Positions 1,153-59,019 of a DNA stretch of 64,000 nt are shown one piece after another. The position numbers and the translations under genes were made by a program. This DNA comes from Escherichia phage vB_EcoM-G3F7. The DNA is taken from the sequence record MZ234035.1. One strand, 5' to 3'. Under the pieces are notes generated by a model that was not told where the DNA came from, made no database searches, and saw only the letters and a list, made by a program, of their open reading frames with translations. The stretch's first letter is position 1; every line of letters starts with the position of its first letter.

Positions 1153-1181
1153 TTTACAAGCTGACAAGACTATGGTATAGT
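1152..1181 (+). promoter_or_regulatory. T4-type early promoter (GTTTAC -35, TATAGT -10) upstream of dmd
   Basis: GTTTAC at 1152-1157, 18-nt spacer, TATAGT at 1176-1181, then GGAG SD and ATG 1211. Confidence 0.5.
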
Positions 1182-1210
1182 AGTCTTGTTGGTTAAATGA
1201 GGAGATTGTT

Positions 1211-4695: not shown

Positions 4696-4941
4696 ATGGC
4701 TAGTACTCGCGGTTATGTTAATATTAAAACATTTGAGCAGAAATTAGATGGAAATAAGAAAATTGAAGGAAAGGAAATTTCTGTAGCTTTCCCTCTTTAT
4801 TCTGACGTTCACAAAATTTCTGGTGCTCATTACCAGACGTTCCCTTCAGAAAAAGCAGCATATACTACTGTATATGAAGAAAATCAGCGTACTGAATGGA
4901 TTGCTGCAAACGAAGATTTGTGGAAAGTAACTGGTGGTTAA
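4696..4941 (+). CDS. soc: Small outer capsid protein Soc
   Basis: 81-codon ORF MASTRGYVNIKTFEQKLDGNKKIEGKEISVAFPLYSDVHKISGAHYQTFPSEKAAY...; matches T4 Soc as recalled. Confidence 0.93.
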   Translation: MASTRGYVNIKTFEQKLDGNKKIEGKEISVAFPLYSDVHKISGAHYQTFPSEKAAYTTVYEENQRTEWIAANEDLWKVTGG

Positions 4942-4947
4942 TAATTC

Positions 4948-4973
4948 AAGGACTCCTTCGGGAGTCCTTTTTT
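4948..4973 (+). terminator. Rho-independent terminator after soc
   Basis: aaGGACTCC-TTCG-GGAGTCCtt stem-loop with UUCG loop followed by T-run; same hairpin recurs at 58550-58574. Confidence 0.6.
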
Positions 4974-9545: not shown

Positions 9546-10861
9546 CATTTGATGATTTGACAGAAGGCCAGAAAAATGCCTTTAACATCGTTATGAGGGC
9601 TATTAAAGAAAAGAAACATCATGTAACTATTAATGGACCTGCTGGTACTGGTAAGACTACTCTTACTAAGTTCATCATTGAAGCTTTAATATCTACGGGT
9701 GAAACTGGTATTATTTTAGCAGCTCCTACACATGCAGCTAAAAAGATTCTTTCAAAACTGTCGGGGAAAGAAGCGAGTACTATTCACAGTATTCTTAAAA
9801 TTAACCCAGTTACGTATGAAGAAAACGTTCTTTTTGAACAGAAGGAAGTACCAGATTTAGCTAAATGCAGGGTATTAATCTGCGACGAAGCGTCAATGTA
9901 TGATAGAAAGCTATTTAAAATTCTGCTTTCAACTATTCCACCTTGGTGTACTATAATTGGAATAGGTGATAATAAGCAAATTAGACCTGTTGATCCAGGA
10001 GAAAATACTGCTTATATCAGTCCATTCTTTACACATAAAGATTTTTATCAGTGTGAACTCACTGAAGTTAAACGCAGTAATGCTCCTATTATTGATGTAG
10101 CTACTGACGTTCGTAACGGTAAGTGGATTTATGATAAAGTTGTTGACGGGCATGGAGTACGTGGATTTACTGGTGATACCGCTTTACGCGATTTTATGGT
10201 AAATTATTTTTCAATCGTCAAATCTCTAGATGATTTGTTTGAAAATCGCGTAATGGCATTTACGAATAAATCTGTTGACAAGTTAAATAGCATTATTCGT
10301 AAAAAGATTTTTGAAACTGATAAAGATTTTATTGTCGGTGAAATTATTGTAATGCAGGAACCATTAATTAAAACATATAAAATTGATGGAAAGCCTGTGT
10401 CAGAAATTATTTTTAATAACGGACAATTAGTTCGTATTATAGAAGCAGAGTATACATCAACATTTGTTAAAGCTCGTGGTGTTTCTGGAGAATACTTAAT
10501 TCGTCATTGGGATTTAACAGTAGAAACTTACGGCGATGATGAATATTATCGTGAAAAGATTAAAATAATTTCATCTGATGAAGAGCTATATAAGTTTAAC
10601 CTATTTTTAGGTAAAACAGCAGAAACTTATAAAAACTGGAATAAGGGTGGAAAAGCTCCATGGAGTGATTTTTGGGATGCTAAATCACAGTTTAGTAAAG
10701 TGAAAGCACTTCCTGCATCAACATTCCATAAAGCGCAGGGTATGTCTGTAGACCGTGCTTTCATCTATACACCTTGTATTCATTATGCAGATGCTGAATT
10801 GGCTCAACAACTTCTTTATGTTGGTGTTACCCGTGGTCGTTATGACGTATTTTATGTGTGA
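9542..10861 (+). CDS. dda: Dda 5'-3' DNA helicase (SF1B)
   Basis: 439 aa; Walker A GPAGTGKTT; matches T4 Dda as recalled. Confidence 0.93.
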   Translation: MTFDDLTEGQKNAFNIVMRAIKEKKHHVTINGPAGTGKTTLTKFIIEALISTGETGIILAAPTHAAKKILSKLSGKEASTIHSILKINPVTYEENVLFEQKEVPDLAKCRVLICDEASMYDRKLFKILLSTIPPWCTIIGIGDNKQIRPVDPGENTAYISPFFTHKDFYQCELTEVKRSNAPIIDVATDVRNGKWIYDKVVDGHGVRGFTGDTALRDFMVNYFSIVKSLDDLFENRVMAFTNKSVDKLNSIIRKKIFETDKDFIVGEIIVMQEPLIKTYKIDGKPVSEIIFNNGQLVRIIEAEYTSTFVKARGVSGEYLIRHWDLTVETYGDDEYYREKIKIISSDEELYKFNLFLGKTAETYKNWNKGGKAPWSDFWDAKSQFSKVKALPASTFHKAQGMSVDRAFIYTPCIHYADAELAQQLLYVGVTRGRYDVFYV

Positions 10862-10867
10862 GGATAT

Positions 10868-11128
10868 ATGATTAACATCAATTCAAAATATTTAAATCGT
10901 CTAATAGATTGTATAAGGAAGCATACTAATAAGCAAGATAATCTCGATGTTATGGTAACAGGAGCTGAGCTCCTTCATAAGCTTTATCTTATAAGTGATA
11001 CTATATTAGCAATTAAACGAATTGAAAAACAATCATATCACAGTAATACAGATACGGTAATTACACTAGATGAAAGTGTCTGTAAATTACTAATTAAATT
11101 TGAGGAAGCTATTCGTGGAAATAACTAA
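10868..11128 (+). CDS. Hypothetical small protein (86 aa)
   Basis: ATG with GAGGA SD. Confidence 0.45.
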   Translation: MININSKYLNRLIDCIRKHTNKQDNLDVMVTGAELLHKLYLISDTILAIKRIEKQSYHSNTDTVITLDESVCKLLIKFEEAIRGNN

Positions 11129-11360
11129 AGACCAGTTTTATCTGCTTCAAGATAAAGTGAGCGAAATTTATGAAATAGCTTATAGTAAAAATCGTGAAAC
11201 TGTAAAAATTGAATCTAGTAAGTTGATGCTTCAATTAGAAGAAATTGAACGAGATTTAATTGCGTTAGAATTCTTTTGTGGTGAAGTGAAAACTGTCACA
11301 ATCAGTGATTATGTTTTAGGTGAAATTAGCTATCTTTATAAGGCGATTATTAATGATTGA
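11100..11360 (+). CDS. Hypothetical small protein; paralog of next ORF; start uncertain (TTG 11100 or GTG 11115)
   Basis: Track ORF begins with TTG; shares L.EE...D......V.I.DY.LG.I..L pattern with 11353..11595. Confidence 0.4.
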   Translation: MRKLFVEITKDQFYLLQDKVSEIYEIAYSKNRETVKIESSKLMLQLEEIERDLIALEFFCGEVKTVTISDYVLGEISYLYKAIIND

Positions 11361-11595
11361 ATTAAGTTGGTGTCAGTTTAAATCTCTTATGACAAATGTT
11401 AAAGCTGTCATTGAGAAAAATTCTGGTCCTGAAAATATTACTATTCGCGAAAAAGCTTTAAAGATAATATACAGTCTTGAAGAGATGCAAAAAGATATTG
11501 AATCTATGGCAAAATTTATTGATGAACCTATTAATAAAGTTTATATTCAAGACTATACTGTAGGCCAAATTCGCGATTTAGCGAGGAAAATTTAA
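11353..11595 (+). CDS. Hypothetical small protein; paralog of previous ORF
   Basis: Track ORF 11320..11595; ATG at 11353 overlaps upstream stop; similarity to preceding ORF. Confidence 0.45.
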   Translation: MIELSWCQFKSLMTNVKAVIEKNSGPENITIREKALKIIYSLEEMQKDIESMAKFIDEPINKVYIQDYTVGQIRDLARKI

Positions 11596-12278
11596 TGTTT
11601 GATTTTATTATAGATTTTGAAACAATGGGAAGTGGTGAAAAAGCAGCTGTTATTGATTTAGCTGTAATTGCTTTTGACCCTAACCCAGAAGTAGTTGAAA
11701 CATTTGATGAATTAGTTTCACGCGGCATTAAAATCAAATTTGATTTAAAAAGCCAAAAAGGACATCGTCTTTTTACTAAAAGCACTATCGAATGGTGGAA
11801 AAATCAGTCTCCTGAAGCTCGAAAAAATATTGCACCGTCCGATGAAGATGTAAGCACTATCGACGGTATTGCGAAATTTAATGATTACATCAATGCACAT
11901 AATATCGATCCTTGGAAATCTCAAGGCTGGTGCCGTGGAATGTCGTTTGATTTTCCAATTTTAGTCGATCTCATTCGTGATATTCAACGTCTTAATGGTG
12001 TTTCTGAGAATGAACTTGACACATTTAAGTTAGAACCATGTAAATTCTGGAATCAGCGTGATATTCGTACCAGAATTGAAGCACTTCTGCTTGTTCGTGA
12101 TATGACCACGTGTCCTCTTCCAAAAGGAACTTTAGATGGATTCGTTGCGCATGATTCTATTCATGACTGCGCGAAAGACATCCTGATGATGAAGTACGCT
12201 TTGCGATATGCTATGGGTCTTGAAGATGCTCCATCAGAGGAAGATTGCGATCCTCTATCTCTTCCAACAAAACGATAA
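11595..12278 (+). CDS. dexA: Exonuclease A DexA (DnaQ-like 3'-5' exonuclease)
   Basis: 227 aa MFDFIIDFETMG...; matches T4 DexA as recalled. Confidence 0.88.
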   Translation: MFDFIIDFETMGSGEKAAVIDLAVIAFDPNPEVVETFDELVSRGIKIKFDLKSQKGHRLFTKSTIEWWKNQSPEARKNIAPSDEDVSTIDGIAKFNDYINAHNIDPWKSQGWCRGMSFDFPILVDLIRDIQRLNGVSENELDTFKLEPCKFWNQRDIRTRIEALLLVRDMTTCPLPKGTLDGFVAHDSIHDCAKDILMMKYALRYAMGLEDAPSEEDCDPLSLPTKR

Positions 12279-12284
12279 AAAGTT

Positions 12285-12314
12285 GTTTACTTCCTCGGTT
12301 AGTTGTGGTATTAT
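12285..12314 (+). promoter_or_regulatory. T4-type early promoter
   Basis: GTTTAC 12285-12290, 18-nt spacer, TATTAT 12309-12314. Confidence 0.4.
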
Positions 12315-12341
12315 AACACCATAGCTACTGAGGATAATAAA

Positions 12342-12842
12342 ATGAAAATTTATCGTGTTGAATCATCGTTTAGTATTCTTGATTATGAAGATGCTATAAC
12401 AATACGTCGAAATCTTTGTGTTCAAATAACGCCGTACAGGAGTATAATAGATTCATGGAGCGAAGAGTGGCTATTACACGTAGGTTATGACAGACCTAAT
12501 TTTATGCATCATAGCGATAATAATAAAAGAATTCCTTTACCACACGAAGATAAACTATTAGTTAAAAACGCTAATATAGTAATTAATACTAAGTTCAAGA
12601 AAGATTATGTTGGAGTAGAATATCATATTCCAGGATGGTTTATAGCTCTTTATCATTTTGCTTTCGCTAGCGAATATGATATGATGAGATGGTTCACACG
12701 AGAAGAGCGTGAAGAATTAGCTTCGAAAGGATTTTATCTTGCTGTATACGAAGTACCAGATGACCAAGTTATCGTTGGCGGGCATCAAGTAATGTTCCGT
12801 AAATCCCATGCTGAACTTGTAGATTTTATTGAAATGAGATAA
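12342..12842 (+). CDS. Hypothetical protein (166 aa)
   Basis: Track ORF 12303..12842 begins with TTG inside the promoter; ATG 12342 follows GAGGA. Confidence 0.5.
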   Translation: MKIYRVESSFSILDYEDAITIRRNLCVQITPYRSIIDSWSEEWLLHVGYDRPNFMHHSDNNKRIPLPHEDKLLVKNANIVINTKFKKDYVGVEYHIPGWFIALYHFAFASEYDMMRWFTREEREELASKGFYLAVYEVPDDQVIVGGHQVMFRKSHAELVDFIEMR

Positions 12843-12844
12843 TT

Positions 12845-13390
12845 ATGAAATTTAATTATAATCCTGAATACACACCGAATCCGGCAGCTAAACTGATTGA
12901 TTTTGACGTTGTAAGTACTTATGTATGCCCTGTTAAACCACTGGAAATTAAGGAACCTACTATGACTACCGCTATTGAAATCGGCAAAACCTACAAACTG
13001 GTTGAACCTAAAATTAAAACTAATGCCTTGATTTCTGGTCATAAAACTCTGACTGATGTTTTTGGCGAAGGCGAATTTATTGTTGAAGAATTTGCCAAAA
13101 GTGAGTGGTTTGACAAATCTTACGTCATCCACGGTCGCCGGTTAGATAATAACAAAATAAAGAAAAACCTGGTTTATGAAGATGAGTTCATCCTGTTCCA
13201 AGAAGTTGAAGAACAAGACCCTACAGACCTGTTGTGTGCTGCTGTGTCTATCCGTCGTCCTTTTGATAATCCTATCTGTGGTTGGGTAACAGACCAGTGG
13301 ATTGAAGATGGTGTTGAGCTTCTGAACGTTGTCCATGCAGGAGATTTTAGTGTAGTACCTCGTAGTGCGGTGGTAGCTATTTTGAATTAA
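12845..13390 (+). CDS. MotB-paralog protein (motB.1 position)
   Basis: 181 aa; C-terminal CGWVTDQWIEDGVELLNVVHAGDFSVVP is clearly paralogous to CGYITDQWVEDGVKLYNVVFLGTYKVIP in the next ORF. Confidence 0.5.
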   Translation: MKFNYNPEYTPNPAAKLIDFDVVSTYVCPVKPLEIKEPTMTTAIEIGKTYKLVEPKIKTNALISGHKTLTDVFGEGEFIVEEFAKSEWFDKSYVIHGRRLDNNKIKKNLVYEDEFILFQEVEEQDPTDLLCAAVSIRRPFDNPICGWVTDQWIEDGVELLNVVHAGDFSVVPRSAVVAILN

Positions 13391-13393
13391 TAG

Positions 13394-13422
13394 TTTACAA
13401 ACTCTTGGGACCAGAGTATAAT
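13394..13422 (+). promoter_or_regulatory. T4-type early promoter
   Basis: GTTTAC 13394-13399, 17-nt spacer, TATAAT 13417-13422. Confidence 0.5.
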
Positions 13423-13466
13423 GGTCCTGTGGAGTATAAAATCTTTTTAACAAGTGAGAGATAACT

Positions 13467-13955
13467 ATGATTATTAATATTGGTGAAATTGCTCGTGTAT
13501 CTGATAAATCCCGTTCTAAAGCAGCAGGAAAATTGGTCGAAGTTGTAAGCATTCAGCTTAAACACGGTGTTAAAGATGAAGATTCTGAAGTAAAAGTACG
13601 TATCATTGCTAAAGATGGAATGTCTAAGCCCCAGTTTGGTTATGTTCGATGGAAATTTCTTGAGCCTGCGTTTTTGAAAGCTGTTCCTGCTAAAGGAATT
13701 GAAACGATTGATACTTCGCATGTAGGTGTAGACTTTAAGTGGAAACTCGGTCAAGCTATCAAGTTCATTGCTCCTTGTGAATTTAAATTTATCAAAGATG
13801 ATGGAAAGGCTGTTTATACTCGCGCTATGTGTGGATACATTACCGATCAATGGGTAGAAGATGGCGTTAAGTTGTACAACGTGGTATTTTTAGGAACATA
13901 TAAAGTCATTCCTGAAAGTTGGATTAAACACTACAGCAATGCTCTCTATGCATAA
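13467..13955 (+). CDS. motB: MotB-like protein, assigned by size (162 aa) and synteny
   Basis: 162 aa; position between dexA and gene 39 as T4 motB; paralog of upstream ORF. Confidence 0.45.
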   Translation: MIINIGEIARVSDKSRSKAAGKLVEVVSIQLKHGVKDEDSEVKVRIIAKDGMSKPQFGYVRWKFLEPAFLKAVPAKGIETIDTSHVGVDFKWKLGQAIKFIAPCEFKFIKDDGKAVYTRAMCGYITDQWVEDGVKLYNVVFLGTYKVIPESWIKHYSNALYA

Positions 13956-13985
13956 AGTTTAAAATTTTTTCATAAAACTATATAC

Positions 13986-14028
13986 ATCAGTAGTTGATTA
14001 TGGTACTATATCAATATCAACTACTGAT
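13986..14028. repeat. 13-bp perfect inverted repeat bracketing a promoter-like -10 region
   Basis: ATCAGTAGTTGAT (13986-13998) and ATCAACTACTGAT (14016-14028) flank TATGGTACTATATCAAT. Confidence 0.5.
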
Positions 14029-14129
14029 ACAGAAAACAACTTGGAGAATAAAATGGATAATTCGTTAAAGGTGCGCTGATACTCTTCTGAAACGCATCGC
14101 TCCAATGTTCAATTAATGAGGAAATTATG

Positions 14130-14345
14130 ATGAAACGTAAAATTGTTCAGAATTGCACTAATGATGAATTTGAAGATGTATTATTCGATCCAGATTTGGT
14201 AGTAGTTCAAAAGGAACACACTATCAAGTTTACTCACTTGACTTCGGTTTATGTGTATGAAAAGGTTGGGGATAAACAACCAATTTACGGTGTATTTCGT
14301 GAAATCACTGAAGATGGTACAACTTACTGGAAGGAAATTTATTAA
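14130..14345 (+). CDS. cef: Cef-like protein, by size and synteny
   Basis: Track ORF 14127..14345 starts ATGATG; second ATG gives 71 aa, the size I recall for T4 Cef; GAGGA SD. Confidence 0.4.
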
Positions 14346-14758
14346 TGGCTATTAAATTTGAAGTTAATAAATGGTATCAATTTAAAAATAAACAAGCTCA
14401 AGAAAATTTTATTAAAGACCATACTGATAACGGAATCTATGCACGCCGTTTAGGTATGCATCCTTTTAAAATTTTAGATGTGGATGCTCTTGGGCGTCCT
14501 ATTAAAATTATGTCATTTGCTGGAAATTTAGTACTATCTTCTGGTAAAGATATTTTGGATGAAGATTTTATTTGGCTTTCATCGAATGAAGCTGAATTCT
14601 TTAATGAAGTTGAAAATCCATACCAGGCAGCTGAAGAGCAGGAAGAATCTGCACCGATAACTGATCAATCTAAATTCCCTGTAATGAAAGTTACTATTGA
14701 AAATGATGAACAGGCATGGTCCTTGTATCAGATGTTGAAAGCTCACTTTAAGGAATAA
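14345..14758 (+). CDS. goF: GoF-like protein, by synteny
   Basis: 137 aa, adjacent to cef-like ORF as in T4. Confidence 0.35.
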
Positions 14759-14760
14759 TT

Positions 14761-14937
14761 ATGCCGCTTTATGATTATAAATGTCAATCAAAAGACTGCG
14801 CAAAAGAATACGAAAAAATCAAGAAAATTTCTGAAAGAGATACTGATGTATGTCCTGATTGTCATCGGATTGCTATTCGGTTAGTCTCTGCCCCTAAGCA
14901 TGTGAATGGCGGATTTTACGACTTACTTAAAGGGTAA
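14761..14937 (+). CDS. Small zinc-ribbon protein (FmdB-like CxxC...CxxC)
   Basis: Hand-translated MPLYDYKCQSKDCAKEYEKIKKISERDTDVCPDCHRIAIRLVSAPKHVNGGFYDLLKG; AAGGA SD. Confidence 0.45.
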   Translation: MPLYDYKCQSKDCAKEYEKIKKISERDTDVCPDCHRIAIRLVSAPKHVNGGFYDLLKG

Positions 14938-14939
14938 TT

Positions 14940-15311
14940 ATGTTTAAAATCGGTAAGAAATATCGCATTCGCGAAGGTGAAGAAAAGAAATATCTATTTT
15001 CTGCTATTTATAGGAATGGTTCTATTAATGCTGTAATATCTACAAGCGAATTTATCGTTGAAGATATGAAAGGTAATAATGTTACAATGATTAGTACAGC
15101 ATCTGGAAATGACGGAAAAATTCTTCACAGTTTTCAGAGTAATGTTCTAATTTATGATGAAGAATTTGACTTCTTCGAAGAAGTTCCCGAAGGTTTTGCT
15201 TTTGAATGCACTATCACTATGAAATCTGGTGACCCTCTTTCTTTTACAGTTAAAGATGAAGGAAGTCGCTTGAGAATTATTAGTCTTCTTCAAGCCATTA
15301 AATTTAAGTGA
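14940..15311 (+). CDS. Hypothetical protein (123 aa)
   Basis: Track ORF, ATG start. Confidence 0.5.
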   Translation: MFKIGKKYRIREGEEKKYLFSAIYRNGSINAVISTSEFIVEDMKGNNVTMISTASGNDGKILHSFQSNVLIYDEEFDFFEEVPEGFAFECTITMKSGDPLSFTVKDEGSRLRIISLLQAIKFK

Positions 15312-15316
15312 AAATT

Positions 15317-15577
15317 ATGAAATATATTAATCGTTCTATCGCGGCATTAGTATTAGCAGTGTCTTTAGTAGGATGTACTGATGCTGATAATGCAACCAAA
15401 GTTTTGTCTTCAAGCGGTTTTACTAATATTGAAATCACTGGATATAACTGGTTCGGTTGTTCTGAAAATGATTTCCAACATACTGGATTTCGTGCTATTG
15501 GACCTACTGGGCAGAAAGTAGAAGGAACAGTATGTTCTGGGCTGTTCTTTAAGGATTCAACTATTCGTTTTAAATAA
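15317..15577 (+). CDS. Putative lipoprotein (signal peptide with lipobox LVGC)
   Basis: Track ORF 15308..15577 starts GTG; ATG at 15317 gives MKYINRSIAALVLAVSLVGCTD... Confidence 0.45.
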   Translation: MKYINRSIAALVLAVSLVGCTDADNATKVLSSSGFTNIEITGYNWFGCSENDFQHTGFRAIGPTGQKVEGTVCSGLFFKDSTIRFK

Positions 15578-15594
15578 AAGGCCTTCGGGCCTTT
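15577..15594 (+). terminator. Stem-loop terminator upstream of gene 39
   Basis: AAAGGCC-TTCG-GGCCTTT; same hairpin recurs at 63349-63366. Confidence 0.45.
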
Positions 15595-15619
15595 AGCTTT
15601 ATGATTACCGGAGTATAAT
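15595..15619 (+). promoter_or_regulatory. Candidate middle promoter for gene 39
   Basis: MotA-box-like AGCTTTA followed by TATAAT at 15614-15619. Confidence 0.3.
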
Positions 15620-15646
15620 ATTCCCGAAACCAAACGAGGATAAGTG

Positions 15647-17464
15647 ATGATTAAGAATGAAATTAAAATTCTGAGCGATATTGAACATATCAAAAAGCGT
15701 AGCGGCATGTACATTGGCTCTTCTGCTAATGAAATGCATGAGCGCTTTCTGTTTGGTAAATGGGAAAGTGTTCAGTATGTACCTGGTCTTGTTAAGCTTA
15801 TTGATGAAATTATCGATAACTCAGTAGATGAAGGTATTCGTACTAAGTTTAAATTCGCAAATAAAATTAATGTTACTATTAAAAACAATCAAGTAACAGT
15901 TGAAGATAACGGTCGTGGTATTCCACAAGCGATGGTTAAAACACCTACCGGTGAAGAAATTCCTGGTCCAGTTGCTGCATGGACTATTCCAAAAGCGGGT
16001 GGTAACTTCGGTGATGATAAAGAACGCGTCACCGGCGGTATGAATGGTGTTGGTTCTAGTTTGACAAACATTTTTTCTGTGATGTTTGTCGGTGAAACTG
16101 GTGATGGTCAAAATAATATTGTAGTTCGTTGTTCAAATGGCATGGAAAATAAATCATGGGAAGATATTCCTGGAAAATGGAAAGGAACTCGTGTTACTTT
16201 CATTCCAGATTTTATGTCATTTGAAACTAATGAATTATCTCAAGTTTATCTTGACATTACACTAGATCGTCTCCAGACACTTGCTGTTGTTTATCCTGAT
16301 ATTCAATTTACCTTTAATGGTAAAAAGGTTCAGGGCAATTTTAAGAAATATGCACGACAGTATGATGAACATGCTATCGTTCAAGAACAAGAAAATTGTT
16401 CTATTGCGGTTGGTCGTTCACCCGACGGTTTTCGTCAATTAACATACGTCAATAACATTCATACTAAGAATGGTGGCCATCACATTGACTGTGTTATGGA
16501 TGATATTTGTGAAGACCTTATTCCACAAATCAAACGCAAGTTCAAAATTGATGTAACTAAAGCACGCGTTAAAGAATGTTTGACTATCGTTATGTTTGTT
16601 CGTGATATGAAAAACATGCGATTTGATTCTCAAACTAAAGAGCGTTTGACTTCTCCATTTGGTGAAATCCGTAGTCATATTCAGCTTGATGCTAAAAAGA
16701 TTTCACGTGCTATTTTGAATAATGAAGCAATTCTGATGCCAATTATTGAAGCTGCTTTGGCTCGTAAATTGGCGGCAGAAAAAGCAGCAGAAACTAAAGC
16801 AGCTAAAAAGGCATCTAAAGCTAAGGTTCATAAACATATCAAAGCGAATCTTTGTGGTAAAGATGCTGATACTACATTGTTCTTGACTGAGGGTGATTCT
16901 GCTATCGGATATCTTATTGATGTTCGTAATAAAGAACTTCATGGTGGTTATCCATTACGTGGTAAAGTTCTCAACAGTTGGGGTATGTCATATGCTGATA
17001 TGCTTAAAAACAAAGAACTATTTGATATTTGCGCAATCACTGGATTAGTTCTTGGTGAAAAAGCTGAAAACTTGAATTATCATAATATTGCTATTATGAC
17101 TGATGCTGACCATGATGGTCTAGGAAGCATTTATCCTTCTCTGCTTGGATTTTTTAGTAATTGGCCAGAACTGTTTGAGCAAGGAAGAATTCGCTTCGTC
17201 AAAACTCCTGTAATCATCGCTCAGGTCGGTAAAAAACAAGAATGGTTTTATACAGTCGCTGAATATGAGAGTGCCAAAGATGCTCTACCTAAACATAGCA
17301 TCCGTTATATTAAAGGACTTGGCTCTTTGGAAAAATCTGAATATCGTGAGATGATTCAAAACCCAGTATATGATGTTGTTAAACTTCCTGAGAACTGGAA
17401 AGAGCTTTTTGAAATGCTCATGGGAGATAATGCTGACCTTCGTAAAGAATGGATGAGCCAGTAG
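15647..17464 (+). CDS. 39: DNA topoisomerase II large (ATPase, GyrB-like) subunit, uninterrupted 39+60-type fusion
   Basis: 605 aa from ATG 15647 (track ORF starts at GTG 15644); GHKL ATPase plus TOPRIM region in a single ORF. Confidence 0.9.
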   Translation: MIKNEIKILSDIEHIKKRSGMYIGSSANEMHERFLFGKWESVQYVPGLVKLIDEIIDNSVDEGIRTKFKFANKINVTIKNNQVTVEDNGRGIPQAMVKTPTGEEIPGPVAAWTIPKAGGNFGDDKERVTGGMNGVGSSLTNIFSVMFVGETGDGQNNIVVRCSNGMENKSWEDIPGKWKGTRVTFIPDFMSFETNELSQVYLDITLDRLQTLAVVYPDIQFTFNGKKVQGNFKKYARQYDEHAIVQEQENCSIAVGRSPDGFRQLTYVNNIHTKNGGHHIDCVMDDICEDLIPQIKRKFKIDVTKARVKECLTIVMFVRDMKNMRFDSQTKERLTSPFGEIRSHIQLDAKKISRAILNNEAILMPIIEAALARKLAAEKAAETKAAKKASKAKVHKHIKANLCGKDADTTLFLTEGDSAIGYLIDVRNKELHGGYPLRGKVLNSWGMSYADMLKNKELFDICAITGLVLGEKAENLNYHNIAIMTDADHDGLGSIYPSLLGFFSNWPELFEQGRIRFVKTPVIIAQVGKKQEWFYTVAEYESAKDALPKHSIRYIKGLGSLEKSEYREMIQNPVYDVVKLPENWKELFEMLMGDNADLRKEWMSQ

Positions 17465-17493
17465 TTTACTTTACCACAAGGATGTGGTATAAT
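17464..17493 (+). promoter_or_regulatory. T4-type early promoter
   Basis: GTTTAC 17464-17469, 18-nt spacer, TATAAT 17488-17493. Confidence 0.5.
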
Positions 17494-17518
17494 TAATTGG
17501 GCAAATGAGGATATTGAA

Positions 17519-17722
17519 ATGAAATCATATAAAGTAAATTTAGAACTTTTTGATAAAGCAGTTCATCGAGAATATAGAATCATTCAACGCTTTTTCGATA
17601 TGGGAGAAGCTGAAGAGTTTAAAAACCGCTTTAAGGATATTAGAGATAAAATTCAATCCGACACCGCAACTAAAGATGAACTACTAGAAGTTGCTGAAGT
17701 TATTAAACGCAATATGAATTAA
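17519..17722 (+). CDS. Hypothetical protein (rIIA.1 position)
   Basis: 67 aa, ATG with GAGGA SD. Confidence 0.5.
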
Positions 17723-17732
17723 TGAGGAAATT

Positions 17733-19910
17733 ATGATTATCACCACTGAAAAAGAAACAATTCTTGGTAATGGTTCTAAATCAAAAGCATTTAGCATCAC
17801 AGCATCTCCTAAAGTATTTAAAATTCTATCATCTGATTTGTACACAAACAAGATTCGCGCAGTAGTCCGTGAATTGATTACCAACATGATTGATGCCCAT
17901 GCTCTCAATGGAAATCCTGAAAAATTTATCATTCAAGTTCCTGGACGTTTAGACCCACGATTTGTTTGTCGAGATTTTGGTCCGGGTATGAGTGATTTTG
18001 ATATTCAGGGTGATGATAATTCTCCTGGGTTGTATAATTCATACTTCAGTTCATCTAAAGCTGAATCTAATGACTTTATTGGCGGATTTGGTTTAGGTTC
18101 TAAATCTCCGTTTAGTTATACTGATACGTTTAGTATTACTTCGTATCATAAAGGTGAAATTCGTGGTTATGTAGCTTACATGGATGGTGATGGCCCACAG
18201 ATTAAACCTACATTCGTAAAAGAAATGGGTCCAGATGATAAAACTGGTATTGAAATCGTAGTTCCAGTTGAAGAAAAAGACTTTAGAAACTTTGCTTATG
18301 AAGTTTCTTATATCATGCGACCATTCAAAGATTTGGCTATCATTAATGGTCTTGACCGCGAAATTGATTATTTTCCGGATTTTGATGATTATTACGGCAT
18401 AAATCCAGAAAGATACTGGCCTGATCGTGGTGGATTATATGCTATCTATGGCGGTATTGTTTATCCTATCGATGGTGTTATTAAAGACCGTAACTGGCTA
18501 AGCATTCGTAATGAAGTGAATTACATTAAGTTTCCAATGGGTTCGCTTGATATTGCTCCATCACGCGAAGCTCTTTCACTAGATGATCGTACTCGTAAAA
18601 ATATTATTGAACGAGTTAAAGAACTCAGTGAGAAAGCATTTAATGAAGATGTAAAACGATTTAAAGAATCTACATCTCCTCGTCACACATATCGTGAATT
18701 GATGAAGATGGGATATTCTGCTCGAGATTATATGATTAGTAATTCAGTCAAATTCACGACTAAAAATCTGTCATATAAAAAGATGCAGAGCATGTTTGAA
18801 CCTGACAATAAGTTATGTAATGCAGGAGTTGTGTATGAAGTAAATCTTGATCCTCGACTGAAGCGCATTAAGCAAAGTCATGAAACTTCAGCCGTTGCAT
18901 CAAGTTATCGTCTGTTTGGTATTAATACAACAAAAATTAATATCGTTATTGATAATATTAAAAATCGTGTTAATATTGTTCGTGGATTAGCACGAGCGTT
19001 AGATGATAGTGAATTTAATAACACTTTGAATATTCATCATAATGAGCGTCTTCTGTTTATTAATCCAGAAGTAGAATCGCAGATTGATTTGCTTCCTGAT
19101 ATTATGGCGATGTTTGAAAGTGATGAAGTTAACATTCATTATTTGTCAGAAATTGAAGCTTTAGTTAAAAGCTATATTCCAAAGGTAGTTAAAAGTAAAG
19201 CTCCTCGTCCTAAAGCTGCTACAGCATTTAAGTTTGAAATTAAAGACGGGCGCTGGGAAAAAGAGGAATTATTTACGCTCACATCAGAAGCAGATGAAAT
19301 TACTGGGTATGTAGCGTATATGCATCGTTCTGATATTTTCTCTATGGATGGTACTACATCTCTTTGTCATCCATCTATGAATATTTTGATTCGTATGGCT
19401 AATCTTATTGGCATTAATGAGTTTTATGTTATTCGTCCGCTTTTGCAGAAAAAGGTAAAAGAACTCGGTCAGTGCCAATGTATTTTTGAAACTCTGCGTG
19501 ATTTATATGTAGATGCTTTTGATGATGTAGATTATGATAAGTACGTAGGTTATTCAAGTTCAGCTCAACGATATATTGATAAAATTATCAAGTATCCTGA
19601 ACTAGATTTTATGATGAAGTACTTCAGTACAGATGAAGTTTCTGAAGAATATACACGACTCGCTAATATAGTTAGTTCATTGCGCGGTGTATATTTTAAT
19701 GGTGGAAAAGATACCATCGGTCATGATATCTGGACAGTAACTAATCTTTTTGATGTATTATCAAATAATGCTTCAAAAAACAGTGATAAAATGGTTGCTG
19801 AGTTTACCAAGAAATTCCGTATTGTTTCCGACTTCATCGGATATCGCAACTCTTTAAGTGATGATGAAGTTTCCCAAATCGCTAAAACTATGAAGGCCCT
19901 TGCGGCCTAA
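17733..19910 (+). CDS. rIIA: rIIA membrane-associated protein
   Basis: 725 aa, [20 protein letters not shown]...; matches T4 rIIA as recalled. Confidence 0.93.
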
Positions 19911-21704: not shown

Positions 21705-21720
21705 AAATTTTCACAAAACG

Positions 21721-21750
21721 GTTTACATACCACAAGGACTGTGGTACTAT
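21721..21750 (+). promoter_or_regulatory. T4-type early promoter (member of repeated promoter cassette)
   Basis: GTTTAC 21721-21726, 18-nt spacer, TACTAT 21745-21750. Confidence 0.5.
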
Positions 21751-21777
21751 ACAACTATCAGCTACGGAGGAGTAAAA

Positions 21778-22219: not shown

Positions 22220-22284
22220 AAAAGTTGTTTACAAGACTGTTCTTCCGTGGTATTATTACCCTATCAACTACGGAGGAACAGAAA

Positions 22285-22718: not shown

Positions 22719-22934
22719 ATGAAAATCTTTAAAGATGTAAAAGTTGGTGAAATTTTCTGTTTAGATAACGGTGATCAGTTAATTCGTATTTCACCTCTTA
22801 AGAGCACTAGCGAGAAACCGACAGTTAACGCTACTTTAGCAAACAATAGTAATGAACGTTTCTGTATTGAAAATGATACTGAAACTTATACCGTAGAAGA
22901 GTTTTGGGAATTGAGCGTCGACTGCGACGATTAA
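22719..22934 (+). CDS. Hypothetical protein (71 aa)
   Basis: Track ORF, ATG after GAGGTG. Confidence 0.45.
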   Translation: MKIFKDVKVGEIFCLDNGDQLIRISPLKSTSEKPTVNATLANNSNERFCIENDTETYTVEEFWELSVDCDD

Positions 22935-22994
22935 TTTAATGGCCGTGTGTATTCATGCGGCCTTGGAGTAGAAAATAATTTAGAGGAAATTAAT

Positions 22995-25165: not shown

Positions 25166-25311
25166 GTCCATTCATTGGTATCACAAGCGCTGCATTAGTA
25201 TCTGGTGGCATTTTACTGGCGGGTTTAGGTGTTGTTCCTGCCGTAGCAGGAGGTCTTCTTGCGTTCGGAATTCAACGTGTTATCATGACAGTTATCACAG
25301 TCATGCAGTAA
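25162..25311 (+). CDS. Small membrane protein (49 aa)
   Basis: Hand-translated MSPFIGITSAALVSGGILLAGLGVVPAVAGGLLAFGIQRVIMTVITVMQ; ATGA overlap with gene 52 stop. Confidence 0.4.
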   Translation: MSPFIGITSAALVSGGILLAGLGVVPAVAGGLLAFGIQRVIMTVITVMQ

Positions 25312-25316
25312 TTTTA

Positions 25317-25341
25317 GGGAGAGCCTCGGCTCTCCCTTTTT
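25317..25341 (+). terminator. Rho-independent terminator
   Basis: GGGAGAG...CTCTCCC stem-loop followed by TTTTT. Confidence 0.55.
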
Positions 25342-25366
25342 ATTTCAAAAATTTTTTCACAAAACG

Positions 25367-25396
25367 GTTTACAACCAAAGCATACTGTGGTACTAT
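25367..25396 (+). promoter_or_regulatory. T4-type early promoter (repeated cassette)
   Basis: GTTTAC 25367-25372, 18-nt spacer, TACTAT 25391-25396; cassette shared with 42716-42769. Confidence 0.5.
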
Positions 25397-25445
25397 ACAA
25401 CTATCAAATAAATGAACTGAAACAAACAACCCGGAGATACAAAAA

Positions 25446-28665: not shown

Positions 28666-29322
28666 TTATTTAGCCCTTCCTAATATTCTGGCCGCCTGAG
28701 CACATATTGATTCAAGGCGGTCATTACTTATATGATCATTTCTATACCAGTACATGGTTATTGTTCCAGCATAGATATTATCCAAATTAAAATATGGACA
28801 ACTGTACATGTAGTTTATTTCGGGAGTAGGCTTTTTAGTTGGTAAAAAAGCAAATTTTGAGTCGGAATAATAATGACGTCCATTTAAATGAACTGTATAT
28901 TCATCCATAGTTTTATCAACAGGATATCCTCCAAGTGATTTTTCACTTATTGTTGAAGGTAATTTTCCTTCATATGCTATAATATCAACAAAATAGTTTA
29001 AGTTTTTAGGGCGGAAAGAATACACCGCACTAAAGTCTGCCTCAGATGATATATGAACTATCTGGAGTTGTTCCAGGGCGACAGATTCAAAGCGTGCATT
29101 TCTTTCCTTTTCAATAATTTCACTGTATGTTTCATACTTTGATTGCTTATAGTACTCAAAGAAACTATCTCCCCTATACCAAACAATCGCCATCATAAAT
29201 AAAAGAATTACGACAGCTACCCGGGAAGCAAGAACTTTCCCGGTAGCGTTATCTTTGAACAAGCGATCTAGAACACCAAACAGAATACCAGAGGGCGAAA
29301 ATGATATTCTAGGTGCTGCCAT
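28666..29322 (-). CDS. t: Holin T
   Basis: 218 aa with N-terminal TMD and large periplasmic domain; matches T4 T as recalled; AGGAGGG SD. Confidence 0.9.
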   Translation of the reverse strand: MAAPRISFSPSGILFGVLDRLFKDNATGKVLASRVAVVILLFMMAIVWYRGDSFFEYYKQSKYETYSEIIEKERNARFESVALEQLQIVHISSEADFSAVYSFRPKNLNYFVDIIAYEGKLPSTISEKSLGGYPVDKTMDEYTVHLNGRHYYSDSKFAFLPTKKPTPEINYMYSCPYFNLDNIYAGTITMYWYRNDHISNDRLESICAQAARILGRAK

Positions 29323-41761: not shown

Positions 41762-42667
41762 ATGTTTAAACGTAAATCTACTGCTGAACTTGCTGCACAA
41801 ATGGCTAAACTGAATGGCAATAAAGGTTTTTCTTCTGAAGATAAAGGCGAGTGGAAACTGAAACTCGATAATGCGGGTAACGGTCAAGCAGTAATTCGTT
41901 TTCTTCCGTCTAAAAATGATGAACAAGCACCATTCGCAATTCTTGTAAATCACGGTTTCAAGAAAAATGGTAAATGGTATATTGAAACATGTTCATCTAC
42001 CCATGGTGATTACGATTCTTGCCCAGTATGTCAGTACATCAGTAAAAATGATCTGTACAACACTGACAATAAAGAGTACAGTCTTGTTAAACGTAAAACT
42101 TCTTACTGGGCTAATATTCTTGTAGTAAAAGACCCAGCTGCTCCAGAAAACGAAGGTAAAGTATTTAAATACCGTTTCGGTAAGAAAATCTGGGATAAAA
42201 TTAATGCAATGATTGCAGTTGATGTTGAAATGGGTGAAACTCCGGTTGATGTAACTTGTCCGTGGGAAGGTGCTAACTTTGTACTGAAAGTTAAACAGGT
42301 TTCTGGATTTAGTAACTACGATGAATCTAAATTCCTGAATCAATCTGCGATTCCAAACATTGACGATGAATCTTTCCAGAAAGAACTGTTCGAACAAATG
42401 GTTGACCTTTCTGAAATGACTTCTAAAGATAAATTCAAATCGTTTGAAGAACTGAGCACTAAGTTCAGTCAAGTTATGGGAACTGCTGCTATGGGTGGTG
42501 CCGCAGCAACTGCCGCTAAGAAAGCTGATAAAGTTGCTGATGATTTGGATGCATTCAATGTTGATGACTTCAATGCAAAAACTGAAGATGATTTTATGAG
42601 CTCAAGCTCTGGCAGTTCATCTAGTGTTGATGACACGGACCTGGATGACCTTTTGAATGACCTTTAA
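41762..42667 (+). CDS. 32: Single-stranded DNA-binding protein gp32
   Basis: 301 aa [49 protein letters not shown]...; matches T4 gp32 as recalled. Confidence 0.95.
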
Positions 42668-42689
42668 TAGATTATATTACTAATTAATT

Positions 42690-42714
42690 GGGGACCTCTA
42701 GGGTCCCCTTTTTT
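42690..42714 (+). terminator. Rho-independent terminator after gene 32
   Basis: GGGGACC-TCTAG-GGTCCCC followed by TTTTTT. Confidence 0.65.
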
Positions 42715-42739
42715 ATTTCAAAAATTTTTTCACAAAACG

Positions 42740-42769
42740 GTTTACATCCTTGTCCTTCCATGGTACTAT
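42740..42769 (+). promoter_or_regulatory. T4-type early promoter (repeated cassette)
   Basis: GTTTAC 42740-42745, 18-nt spacer, TACTAT 42764-42769. Confidence 0.5.
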
Positions 42770-43084: not shown

Positions 43085-43450
43085 ATGTATATCGGTAAAA
43101 AGTATGAACTTGTTCCAAGACTTATTGATACATTTATTAATTATCGCCCACGTTCTAATTCAGCAATAGTTAAAATTATTCAAGAAAATGGCGGATGGTT
43201 TGAAGTTAAAGAAGCTTTCTTTGTTGATGGATTTAGAGTAATAAAACACATTGAATGCGCAAATGGAAAGCATTTTTACTTTAACGTTTGTGAAGACGAA
43301 TTTCATTGTTTTCGTGAGTATAAAGAACCGACTTCTGAAGAAGATGAAGTCAAAGACAAAGTTTCTGGCGTAACAAAAATTCACTGCATTGTTGACGAAA
43401 ACAATGTAGATGAAATCATTGAACTTTTGCGAAAAACTTTCAAAAAGTAG
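43085..43450 (+). CDS. Hypothetical protein (121 aa)
   Basis: Track ORF, ATG after GAGGAAAA. Confidence 0.5.
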   Translation: MYIGKKYELVPRLIDTFINYRPRSNSAIVKIIQENGGWFEVKEAFFVDGFRVIKHIECANGKHFYFNVCEDEFHCFREYKEPTSEEDEVKDKVSGVTKIHCIVDENNVDEIIELLRKTFKK

Positions 43451-43588
43451 TTTACAGAAGGGTAGTAGTGTGATACTATTACCCTATCAAAACTAATGGA
43501 GAAAAGAAAATGTTCGCACCTTATATTATGGCAGCAGTTATGTTGGTCTGTTTATATCTTTTGATTAAAGCTTGCTAAGGAGAATAAA

Positions 43589-51579: not shown

Positions 51580-51611
51580 GTTTACAAGTCCCTCGTGTTG
51601 TGTTATAGTAG
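51580..51611 (+). promoter_or_regulatory. T4-type early promoter upstream of alc
   Basis: GTTTAC 51580-51585, spacer, TGTTATAGT -10. Confidence 0.45.
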
Positions 51612-51640
51612 TCTTACTGACATAACATGAGGACTTTATG

Positions 51641-54624: not shown

Positions 54625-54626
54625 AT

Positions 54627-54904: not shown

Positions 54905-54934
54905 GTTTACTTTACGGTAGAGTTGTGATATTAT
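54905..54934 (+). promoter_or_regulatory. T4-type early promoter with -10 inside an inverted repeat
   Basis: GTTTAC 54905-54910, 18-nt spacer, TATTAT 54929-54934. Confidence 0.45.
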
Positions 54935-58990: not shown

Positions 58991-59019
58991 GTTTACTTTG
59001 GTACAGGATATGATATTAT
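58991..59019 (+). promoter_or_regulatory. T4-type early promoter with -10 inside an inverted repeat
   Basis: GTTTAC 58991-58996, 17-nt spacer, TATTAT 59014-59019. Confidence 0.45.

Follow-up and report, generated by a model that had tools for sequence, protein, structure and literature searches.

The 64-kb window, by which we mean the whole 64,000-nt stretch of DNA that was analyzed, belongs to a Tequatrovirus and is 100% identical to CHD94UKE2 over the stretches compared. It contains 21 early promoters of the T4 early type (sigma-70). The three considered first have an inverted repeat around the −10 element (Table 1) and lie in gene junctions: site 1 between motB and cef, site 2 between the cd.3 homologue and the gene that follows it, and site 3 between the 30.8 and 30.7 homologues. 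The original prediction had described perfect repeats of 13, 7, and 8 bp flanking the −10 of three early-type promoters. Direct reading and a repeat search confirmed the repeats and their positions, and a −35, a TG, and a −10 could be read at each site. The distance between the upstream stop codon and the −35 is 25 nt at site 1 and 3 nt at both sites 2 and 3.

Table 1. Promoter elements, promoter-enclosing hairpins, and T-run hairpins of the window.
Feature	Position	Strand	Description
Site 1 promoter	13981..14009	+	motB-cef intergenic; −35 TATACA 13981-13986; 17-bp spacer
Site 1 TGn / −10	TGn 14001-14003; TACTAT 14004-14009	+	sequence read directly
Site 1 hairpin arms, 13 bp perfect	ATCAGTAGTTGAT 13986-13998; ATCAACTACTGAT 14016-14028	+	repeat search
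GGAG Shine-Dalgarno and 8-codon micro-ORF	14043-14046; 14053-14079	+	3′ of site 1
Site 2 promoter	54906..54934	+	between cd.3 homologue and next gene; 17-bp spacer, TGn
Site 2 −35 / −10	TTTACT 54906-54911; TATTAT 54929-54934	+	TG before −10
Site 2 hairpin, 7 bp perfect	GGTAGAG 54916-54922; CTCTACC 54937-54943	+	repeat search
Site 3 promoter	58992..59019	+	between 30.8 and 30.7 homologues; 16-bp spacer, TGn
Site 3 −35 / −10	TTTACT 58992-58997; TATTAT 59014-59019	+	TG before −10
Site 3 hairpin, 8 bp perfect	GGTACAGG 59000-59007; CCTGTACC 59023-59030	+	repeat search
Hairpin, promoter 1153	1159..1194	+	ACAAGACT/AGTCTTGT, lengthened by G·U; z −4.7
Hairpin, promoter 12286	12292..12334	+	−23.7 kcal/mol, z −6.2; Shine-Dalgarno of downstream gene in 3′ arm
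Hairpin, promoter 13394 (upstream of motB)	13401..13435	+	z −3.6
Hairpin, promoter 22228	22237..22281	+	−22.7 kcal/mol, z −4.1; GGAGG in 3′ arm
Hairpin, promoter 43451	43448..43495	+	AGGGTAG.../...CTATTACCCT; z −4.5
Hairpin, promoter 51581	51587..51635	+	−23.2 kcal/mol, z −5.25; Shine-Dalgarno in 3′ arm
GC-rich hairpins with T-run	4921-4968, 25304-25347, 42665-42708, 58536-58580		just upstream of promoters

The −35 of site 1 is weaker than those of sites 2 and 3. Its repeat can be extended to 20-nt arms of 85% complementarity, the perfect stem being followed inward by a 2x2 internal loop, a 5-bp stem (14001-14005/14009-14013, with one G·U pair), and a 3-nt tip, with the −10 at the tip of the hairpin. 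As RNA, this structure has a predicted energy of −20.2 kcal/mol (z = −5.55; equaled by 0 of 200 shuffles), and the DNA folds of the two strands reach −11.5 and −10.9 kcal/mol. The promoter sequence is identical in T4 and in five IMG/VR relatives, and JS10 retains the same TATACA −35 at the motB-cef junction; other phages display four more stems at this junction, all of them different. The micro-ORF 3′ of site 1 is a deletion remnant, shared by T4, of an ORF that one relative (L027) carries intact between motB and cef, and it arose as an internal deletion of that ORF. We ruled out motB.1 as its source, because the T4 gene order places motB.1 upstream of motB; the remnant therefore stems from a different ORF that is intact in some relatives only. 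Downstream of the stem, sites 1 and 3 have a 22-nt segment in common.

Site 2 corresponds to the T4 early promoter Pe133295, named as such in the T4 GenBank note, and fPS-90 carries the annotation “predicted early promoter” at its orthologue. In RNA, G·U pairs that are present on the plus strand only bring the stem to 12 pairs (−16.3 kcal/mol, z = −4.24); on the minus strand the fold attains just −9.2 kcal/mol, and as DNA the site folds at only −5 kcal/mol per strand. Stems at the cd.3 junction comprise GGTAGAG/CTCTACC, GGTGGAG/CTCTACC (with a G·U pair), and, in JS98, GGTAGGACT/AGTCCTACC with compensatory changes. The cassette equals that of T4 up to the Shine-Dalgarno sequence and continues into a 528-bp ORF absent from T4, an insertion with a flanking cassette on one side only. 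According to the T4 GenBank note, the 14 bp between the arms of site 2 were once reported as the reverse complement. We looked for a natural inversion of this loop and rejected it: none of 690 records is inverted, and the best identity to the inverted query, 94%, is the level given by the normal orientation. Given this count, the old report probably reflects a sequencing or cloning artefact.

At site 3, where the orthologous place in fPS-90 is likewise annotated as a “predicted early promoter,” additional inner and outer pairs extend the RNA stem (−20.1 kcal/mol, z = −5.74), and the two DNA strands fold at −8.4 and −7.6 kcal/mol. The arms are invariant in 13 of 14 IMG/VR loci from two genera, with variable loops and flanks; the 14th (L006) has a single C-to-T change in the 3′ arm that retains pairing as G·U. 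A profile search for gp30.7 relatives returned the same 14 loci from IMG/VR and none from GTDB genomes, and relatives beyond these loci were collected by tblastn against a phage collection. The stems at this junction are GGTACAGG/CCTGTACC in the T4 type, GGTGAGAGTCT/AGACTCTCACC in Winklervirus, GGTGTAGGAGTA/TACTCTTACACC in Marfavirus, GGGTGGT.CTGGGT/... in Roth34, and CTCCGTTGTAT/ATACAACGGAG in Karamvirus and Gelderlandvirus.

A perfect stem of at least 7 bp brackets 3.6% of random positions and 3.1% of 687 non-promoter −10-like hexamers; for stems of at least 8 bp the chance level is 1.0–1.6%, and for those of at least 13 bp ∼0.01%. On arm length alone, site 1 is the sole site that lies individually far past chance, and the three sites taken as a set exceed chance. 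A stem of 7 bp or more surrounds the −10 at five of the 21 early promoters, compared to ∼0.6 expected (binomial P = 3.6e-4 versus the 687 hexamers; flank-shuffle P = 5e-4). As RNA, each of the three sites folds better than 200 out of 200 dinucleotide shuffles. More widely, the fold z-score is −3.6 or lower at nine of the 21 promoters, and of the 12 strongest 50-nt folds across the entire 64 kb, seven enclose an early −10. Hairpin promoters also tend to follow closely on the preceding gene, with an upstream stop codon no more than 7 nt away in 7/9 cases versus 3/12 of the others (Fisher P = 0.024). No match to Rfam was obtained when the whole window was scanned at gathering thresholds.

The Shine-Dalgarno sequence falls inside the 3′ arm at promoters 12286, 22228, 51581, 7087, and 58600 of the window, as well as in orthologues from PG7, CF-SP2, and F2 and at RB69 promoter 7428. 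The latter is the one very strong hairpin promoter in the first 20 kb of RB69, where most scanned promoters have no hairpin; the feature is thus not uniformly frequent. Within the window, about half of the early promoters (10/21) have no such hairpin. Together with the RB69 promoters, these cases indicate that the hairpin is dispensable for early promoter function. Three other promoters of the window sit in common cassettes of 37–55 nt.

With +1 set 7 nt past the −10, transcription is predicted to start at 14016 (site 1), 54941 (site 2), and 59026 (site 3). At sites 2 and 3 these positions fall within the 3′ arm, and at site 1 on the first base of that arm. Consequently, the promoter's own transcript would never contain the 5′ arm, in agreement with the earlier proposal that only the downstream arm enters this RNA. 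The literature that we searched yielded no start-site or termination map of T4. The stems end at 14028, 54943, and 59030, ahead of Shine-Dalgarno sequences at 14043, 54953, and 59046 (sites 1, 2, and 3, respectively). A Shine-Dalgarno sequence and an ATG are found within 30–45 nt, the ATG of site 1 opening the 8-codon remnant. As the 3′ arms end 10–15 nt short of the Shine-Dalgarno sequence, the ribosome-binding site is left free at all three sites.

To compare these structures across phages, we picked orthologous junctions solely by homology of the neighboring proteins and assessed pairing by shuffle z-scores for each orthologous sequence. A pooled pair-count covariation test was rejected because the stems would have been selected by pairing, which is circular. 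The −10 is enclosed in the fold in all 15 orthologous regions, with z of −2.1 or lower in 13 of them, and in at least six other genera the promoters of these same junctions likewise have the −10 within a hairpin, with differing stem sequences. The repeats are therefore kept in relatives, an outcome that leaves the original prediction standing on this point. Many stems across junctions and genera start with GGTR and finish with YACC; arm lengths (7–13 bp) and inter-arm distances (10–30 nt) vary among elements. The folds favor the sense strand: they contain 29 G·U pairs on this strand versus seven on the antisense strand, and the mean sense-minus-antisense difference in minimum free energy (MFE) is −5.6 kcal/mol, compared to −0.94 kcal/mol for random windows (Mann-Whitney P = 4e-5; Wilcoxon P = 0.0018 for all 21 promoters). 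Sites 1 and 3 are near-perfect palindromes with a weak strand bias (MFE differences of −2.2 and −1.8 kcal/mol), and a DNA-level role is possible for these two sites specifically.

Several alternative roles were weighed against these observations. The hairpins might terminate the upstream gene as ordinary Rho-independent terminators and overlap the next promoter by chance. They are intergenic and directly follow a stop codon, the papers on PeSL elements (Arbiol et al. 2010, Genome Biol Evol 2:140, PMC2839356; Comeau et al. 2014, Genome Biol Evol 6:1611, PMC4122927) use the term “terminators” for stem-loops, and one RB49 stem-loop reduced downstream lacZ about as much as rrnB T1 did (PMC2839356). 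However, none of the 11 promoter-enclosing hairpins is followed by a T-run. The 12 nt past the stem hold 0, 1, and 3 T residues at sites 1, 2, and 3, and the sequence there is A-rich, as expected from the original view that these are not simple terminators. Of the three sites, a terminator scan of positions 10000–18000 took in site 1 alone and predicted no terminator there, and the G50 and fPS-90 annotations place none at the positions of sites 2 and 3. Genuine T-run terminators occur separately in the window, preceding four promoters with longer junctions, and both G50 and fPS-90 annotate a GC-rich one upstream of the 30.8 homologue. Stems that have no U-tract are unlikely to terminate efficiently on their own, and we regard the terminator explanation as very improbable. 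The repeats could instead be duplex-DNA operators through which the −10 is occluded by a dimeric protein of the phage or the host, for instance in the shut-off of early promoters. The dyad is centered on the −10 at all three sites, the constancy of the site 3 arms amid variable loops and flanks would suit a sequence-specific site within a clade, the GGTR...YACC ends recur, and the mechanism by which T4 early promoters are shut off minutes after infection is still unexplained according to reviews (PMC3014915; PMC2988021). Yet the arms are wholly different among sites (ATCAGTAGTTGAT, GGTAGAG, GGTACAGG, ACAAGACT, and others) and among orthologous promoters, where they differ with compensatory changes and have no recurring half-site, and arm lengths and spacing are not fixed. 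Moreover, the imperfections are G·T pairs confined to the sense strand, a pattern for which a protein that binds duplex DNA would not select, and around half of the early promoters are repeat-free even though shut-off is described as general. The operator role that had been put forward for these repeats thus does not fit their variable stems, G·U asymmetry, and lack of a common operator sequence, and we consider it quite unlikely. It is still harder to accept that the repeats extrude in supercoiled DNA, as a cruciform or as a hairpin of the non-template strand, and thereby tune promoter activity. Sites 1 and 3 do fold on both strands under DNA parameters, as near-perfect palindromes should, and the favored strand is the non-template strand, whose −10 bases are bound by sigma-70. 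Nevertheless, loops of 14–17 nt combined with short A/T-rich arms make extrusion energetically costly; the DNA hairpins are weak (−5 to −11.5 kcal/mol), with site 2 the weakest, and the strand-asymmetric imperfections of most members disfavor a four-way structure. Extrusion would also wreck the duplex −35/TGn/−10 geometry on which these promoters depend (PMC2988021). Neither a duplex operator nor a cruciform is expected to prefer one strand, so the sense-strand bias counts against both.

A role of the stem-loops mainly as recombination substrates, with PeSL cassettes shuffling the small genes that flank them and any effect on RNA being secondary, strikes us as improbable, although it has a published basis: a crossover has been mapped in a PeSL loop and PeSL mini-circles have been detected (Arbiol 2010, PMC2839356), and PeSLs adjoin insertions and deletions between T4 and PST (Comeau 2014, PMC4122927). 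The T4-identical cassette of site 2 next to an ORF not found in T4, the deletion remnant 3′ of site 1, the 22 nt common to sites 1 and 3, and the cassettes shared by three other promoters all point in the same direction. However, homologous exchange requires shared sequence, and within the cassettes it is the stems that have least in common, among both sites and genera. Only one cassette flanks the site 2 insertion, the remnant at site 1 results from an internal ORF deletion, and a pure recombination role does not predict pairing that is kept through compensatory or G·U changes, nor a sense bias. The recombination and RNA roles are compatible and not mutually exclusive. A far more sweeping idea, to which we give little credence, is that the hairpins form a Tevenvirinae-wide device that reports the origin of a transcript, perhaps tied to early shut-off, with a factor that silences or degrades hairpin-marked RNA, or a structure-specific factor that recognizes the dyads on DNA and turns early promoters off. 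If true, early genes would be readable from their own promoters, RNA derived from upstream would be marked by the hairpin, and a nuclease, Rho, or a structure-binding protein would be candidate users of the mark.

We favor, as the probable explanation, that each site is a composite of a promoter and a PeSL-type stem-loop that acts on read-through RNA. The promoter is a strong sigma-70 promoter of the T4 early kind with an A/T-rich upstream region, a GTTTAC-type −35, a TGn, and a −10, in which the spacer and the start-site/initial transcribed region, both unconstrained in sequence, may have evolved complementarity, leaving the −10 hexamer in the loop. The promoter's own mRNA would be unable to form the hairpin because transcription begins at or inside the 3′ arm, whereas RNA from promoters further upstream would cross these 60–70-nt junctions with both arms and could fold into a stable hairpin between the cistrons (−16 to −20 kcal/mol). 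It would therefore be a mark borne by read-through transcripts only. Both the start positions and the effect of the hairpin on RNA (attenuation, 3′-end protection, or insulation) are our inference: it may attenuate or punctuate upstream transcription, shield the upstream cistron's 3′ end once an endonuclease has cut, or both. In the sister elements that hold their Shine-Dalgarno sequence in the 3′ arm, the hairpin would also keep the downstream gene from being translated on read-through RNA. Lack of room in these short junctions for a separate stem-loop presumably accounts for the overlap of hairpin and promoter; where space allows, the genome appears to place a GC-rich T-run terminator just upstream of the promoter. 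Conservation of the structure across genera, the sense bias, and the missing U-tract argue for a role on read-through RNA other than classical termination, and the evidence as a whole speaks against an operator common to the sites, a cruciform, and intrinsic termination of the classical kind. Thus, among the three readings offered at the outset, structure in read-through RNA fits the evidence and matches PeSL elements, whereas operator and cruciform do not. The arrangement bears on how the dense multi-promoter early regions of T4-like phages separate neighboring transcription units.

Promoters built on hairpins or cruciforms are exemplified by engineered cruciform promoters in E. coli and by the early promoters of phage N4, which are used by the virion RNA polymerase. 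The present sites resemble them in having an inverted repeat centered on the core promoter, but T4 promoters are read as duplex −35/TGn/−10 elements by host sigma-70 RNA polymerase, the loops found here are long, the stems are strand-asymmetric, and any extrusion is putative. Intercistronic mRNA hairpins, such as the RNase III sites of T7 early mRNA and REP stem-loops, block 3′ exonucleases. Our elements are likewise stable hairpins without a U-tract between cistrons of a long early transcript, although their stems fall short of the usual length of RNase III substrates, and hairpins of the T7 RNase III-site or REP type are not known to overlap a promoter. A likely target for cleavage downstream is the GGAG Shine-Dalgarno sequence of sites 1 and 3, which is the motif cleaved by T4 RegB (PMC3014915). 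The T4 e, soc, 49, and I-TevI leaders are comparable in having a promoter between or within the arms, so that only the longer upstream transcripts fold; in these leaders, the hairpin of early read-through RNA hides the ribosome-binding site, and a late or middle promoter lies inside (PMC3014915). The geometry of an internal promoter is found at our three sites, given the predicted +1. Pairing of the Shine-Dalgarno sequence or start codon by the 3′ arm is absent from these three sites and present in the sister elements. The internal promoter here is an early sigma-70 promoter and not a late or middle one, and hence no temporal switch is implied.

The closest counterpart is the PeSL, and the three sites match these elements as already published, including a subclass that overlaps the −10. 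PeSLs are divided into five positional subclasses, among them stem-loops that overlap the −10 or lie between the −35 and −10; their stems are drawn with G-T pairs, and termination or attenuation of upstream transcription has been proposed (PMC2839356). They were later extended to the T4/PST pair, with the consensus TTTACW-N17-TAYWAT (PMC4122927). Our sites have the promoter (TTTACT-N17/16-TATTAT with TGn at sites 2 and 3, which match this consensus, and TATACA-N17-TACTAT with TGn at site 1), stable RNA folds with the −10 in the loop at all three, and the order upstream stop codon, A/T-rich region, promoter, Shine-Dalgarno sequence, and start codon. They share with PeSLs the intergenic composite architecture, the possible overlap of stem-loop and −10, G-T pairs, and a proposed attenuating role, and may also resemble them in lying beside indels. 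The T4/PST stem-loops differ in being described as lying just upstream of the promoter, like the four T-run terminators of the window, and not as bracketing the −10. Unlike the Gn-loop-Cn stems of RB49, the stems here are A/T-rich and have no U-tract; a G/C-rich RB49 stem-loop is the only one of the PeSL type that has been put to an experimental test (PMC2839356). The palindromes are thus instances of a published T4-type element, and no new kind of element is needed to account for them. Whereas the PeSL papers emphasize recombination, the measurements made here add to the older description a structure that persists in at least six further genera despite changes in its sequence, a bias toward the sense strand, and stems with no U-tract.

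All three perfect inverted repeats of the original prediction are present at sites 1, 2 and 3 (see table). Each belongs to an early-type promoter whose -10 is TAYWAT, preceded by a TGn motif, and whose -35 is of the GTTTAC type (at site 1, TATACA); in each the 5' arm lies inside the promoter spacer and the 3' arm directly past the -10. Site 1 falls within the 171-nt motB-cef intergenic region, site 2 in the junction of the cd.3 homologue with the gene that follows it, and site 3 in that of the 30.8 and 30.7 homologues; early transcription in T4 has the direction of the window's + strand. Positions 13500-14600 are 100% identical to Tequatrovirus phages CHD94UKE2 and WilhelmHis, and 54600-59400 to CHD94UKE2. 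The T4 GenBank record names early promoter Pe133295 at site 2, and a "predicted early promoter" is annotated in phage fPS-90 at the orthologous positions of sites 2 and 3. A T4 misc_feature (AF158101, 133300-133313, equivalent to window 54923-54936) coincides precisely with the 14-bp loop that separates the arms of site 2 and reads 'inverted complement of previously reported sequence; corrects the early promoter Pe133295'. That this stretch, flanked as it is by inverted repeats, had earlier been reported in reverse suggests a hairpin-driven sequencing or cloning artefact; the inverted form is absent from all 690 records searched.

Inverted repeats, stems in distant relatives, and classical terminators
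Feature	Arms or position	Strand	Remark
Site 1 perfect inverted repeat	ATCAGTAGTTGAT 13986-13998; ATCAACTACTGAT 14016-14028	+	direct reading
Site 2 perfect inverted repeat	GGTAGAG 54916-54922; CTCTACC 54937-54943	+	direct reading
Site 3 perfect inverted repeat	GGTACAGG 59000-59007; CCTGTACC 59023-59030	+	direct reading
gp30.7 junction, Winklervirus	GGTGAGAGTCT/AGACTCTCACC		encloses -10
gp30.7 junction, Marfavirus	GGTGTAGGAGTA/TACTCTTACACC		encloses -10
gp30.7 junction, Roth34	two-part stem		encloses -10
gp30.7 junction, Karamvirus and Gelderlandvirus	CTCCGTTGTAT/ATACAACGGAG		encloses -10; Shine-Dalgarno sequence forms the 3' arm
Downstream of cd.3, a Mosigvirus phage	GGTGGAG/CTCTACC		one G·U pair
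Downstream of cd.3, JS98	GGTAGGACT/AGTCCTACC		compensatory changes
motB-cef junction, four further phages			four further stems
Classical terminators (GC-rich stem, T-run)	4921-4968, 25304-25347, 42665-42708, 58536-58580		directly upstream of four other early promoters

The promoter set comprised 21 + strand promoters of the early type: a consensus scan supplied 20, and site 1, which the scan missed owing to its weak -35, was added. Each was scored by its longest perfect stem whose arms lie on either side of the -10. Such a stem reaches 7 bp or more in 5 of the 21 (0.6 by flank shuffling, P=5e-4) and 6 bp or more in 7 (2.4 by shuffling, P=5e-3); the background frequency of stems of 7 bp or more is 3.6% at random positions and 3.1% at 687 -10-like hexamers outside promoters (binomial P=3.6e-4). 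In 9/21 promoters the RNA fold spanning -26 to +24 around the -10 has a z-score of -3.6 or below relative to dinucleotide shuffles, and a whole-window scan in 50-nt frames found an early -10 enclosed in 11 of 72 strongly folding places and in seven of the 12 strongest folds. Sites 1-3 are therefore members of a larger class of promoter-enclosing hairpins. Judged only by the length of their arms, the repeats of site 2 (7 bp) and site 3 (8 bp) would not be individually remarkable, but they are once judged as folds with G·U pairs (z of -4.24 and -5.74, respectively, with 0/200 shuffles as good). Four further local RNA folds of high stability (-19 to -22 kcal/mol) lie away from early promoters, at 22916-22962, 46260-46307, 15701-15746 and 29212-29250, two of them within ORFs.

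The original prediction had proposed conservation in related phages as a check, and all three elements are unchanged in T4. Site 1 is identical in five IMG/VR relatives, and the site 3 arms are unchanged in 13/14 IMG/VR loci in which the loop and both flanks differ, with gp30.7 91-93% identical in some of the phages; the exception (L006) carries one C-to-T change that retains a G·U pair. A stronger test used distant relatives chosen solely by homology of the neighbouring protein, ignoring structure. The -10 is enclosed in the folds of all 15 regions, 13 of which have z of -2.1 or lower and nine of which fold better than all 200 shuffles. The hairpin structure is conserved and the stem sequence is not. 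Many promoter-enclosing stems start 2-4 nt past the -35 with GGTR (Roth34 and the 43451 promoter have GGGT) and end in YACC or a near variant near +1, followed by AACAAA; this pattern recurs across different junctions and genera (sites 2 and 3; 43451; relatives' loci L044, L045, L047, L049, L051 and L053-L055) and could stem from common descent of cassettes or from a sequence constraint near the start site.

The repeats had been read as DNA-level operators, as cruciforms, or as attenuators of read-through transcripts. Folding the + strand of the 11 promoter-enclosing hairpins in the window gives 29 G·U pairs, versus 7 for the - strand, and the + strand fold is more stable by 5.6 kcal/mol on average, against a random-window mean of 0.9 (P=4e-5); for the full set of 21 promoters the strand difference gives a Wilcoxon P of 0.0018. 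Since a duplex operator or cruciform has no reason for a strand preference, this bias points to RNA from the + strand, although the argument is weak for sites 1 and 3 because both are nearly perfect palindromes. Neither DNA-level reading is supported. The operator reading is further disfavored by stem sequences that differ across junctions, and the cruciform reading by weak DNA-parameter hairpins (-5 to -11.5 kcal/mol) with loops of 14-17 nt.

The read-through reading is supported by the strand bias and by the predicted position of the start sites. Setting +1 at 7 nt past the -10, we infer starts at 14016, 54941 and 59026, at or inside the 3' arm; hence the promoter's own mRNA would be unable to form the hairpin, in agreement with the earlier expectation that the downstream arm alone is transcribed, while RNA from upstream could form it. 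The element is most likely an intercistronic RNA hairpin specific to read-through transcripts, and the most probable proposed effects would be that upstream transcription is attenuated or paused, or that the 3' end of the upstream cistron is protected. In RB69 (L028, NC_004928), a 13-bp perfect repeat, TTCTCCTCTGGTT/AACCAGAGGAGAA, surrounds the -10 TATTAT of a promoter upstream of motB.2 (-35 hexamer at ~7428; -24.4 kcal/mol, z -7.2). Its 3' arm is the downstream gene's Shine-Dalgarno sequence, so this is a clear case of a ribosome-binding site predicted to be hidden in read-through RNA only.

That the repeats are not simple terminators holds: no T-run follows any promoter-enclosing hairpin, and the 12 nt past the stem are A-rich, with no T at site 1, one at site 2 and three at site 3. 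Two of the four classical terminators in the window carry a CUUCGG loop, and other annotators marked the orthologue of 58536-58580 as a terminator and placed none at sites 2 and 3. An identical 25-nt sequence, aggactccttcgggagtcctttttt, occurs in the CUUCGG/T-run hairpins at 4945-4973 and 58550-58574, each of which directly precedes an early promoter. By simple ORF calls, the promoter abuts the upstream stop codon in 7/9 hairpin promoters versus 3/12 others (P=0.024), which suggests that the overlap of hairpin and promoter results from very short junctions.

Sites 1-3 are promoter-early stem-loop (PeSL) elements of T4-type phages, a kind of element already published. Arbiol et al. 2010 (PMC2839356) described intergenic composites in which an A/T-rich region and a sigma-70 early promoter are combined with a stem-loop and a Shine-Dalgarno sequence, distinguished five subclasses by stem-loop position (most commonly between -35 and -10 or overlapping the -10), drew G-T pairs in the stems, and proposed termination or attenuation of upstream transcription by the stem-loop, and gene shuffling mediated by the cassettes. 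Two early promoters in the window contain short inverted repeats confined to the spacer, of the 'between -35 and -10' subclass (17474-17489, CCACA AGGA TGTGG; 21731-21746, CCACA AGGAC TGTGG). Comeau et al. 2014 (PMC4122927) extended PeSLs to the T4/PST pair, with promoter consensus TTTACW-N17-TAYWAT and stem-loops placed just upstream of the promoter.

Three features appear in line with shuffling: the site 2 cassette is T4 sequence up to the Shine-Dalgarno sequence, followed by a 528-bp ORF without T4 counterpart; a deletion remnant follows site 1; and a 22-nt segment past the stem is common to sites 1 and 3. The 528-bp ORF (54965-55492), which G50, fPS-90 and several IMG/VR loci also have, is an insertion placed precisely between the site 2 Shine-Dalgarno sequence and the start codon of the cd.2 homologue. 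The remnant, also present in T4, is an 8-codon ORF at 14053-14079 (ATG GAT AAT TCG TTA AAG GTG CGC TGA) with a good GGAG Shine-Dalgarno sequence, and fuses the start and end of a longer ORF, of which IMG/VR locus L027 has an intact copy between motB and cef. Near-identical cassettes at three other early promoters (21708-21760, 25337-25406 and 42710-42778; 37 nt at 100%, 55 nt at 91%) span the upstream A/T-rich region, -35, -10 and start region with completely different spacers; they are recurrent promoter cassettes, a type proposed to permit recombination.

To the published description our analysis adds hairpin conservation across genera with changing stems, a sense-strand bias and the lack of a U-tract, which together question the 'terminator' label without settling function. 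The 3' arm stops short of the Shine-Dalgarno sequence at sites 1, 2 and 3; it reaches that sequence in six sister elements and several orthologues, which, unlike sites 1-3, resemble the known logic of T4 genes e, soc, 49 and I-TevI, with the Shine-Dalgarno sequence in the 3' arm (PMC3014915).
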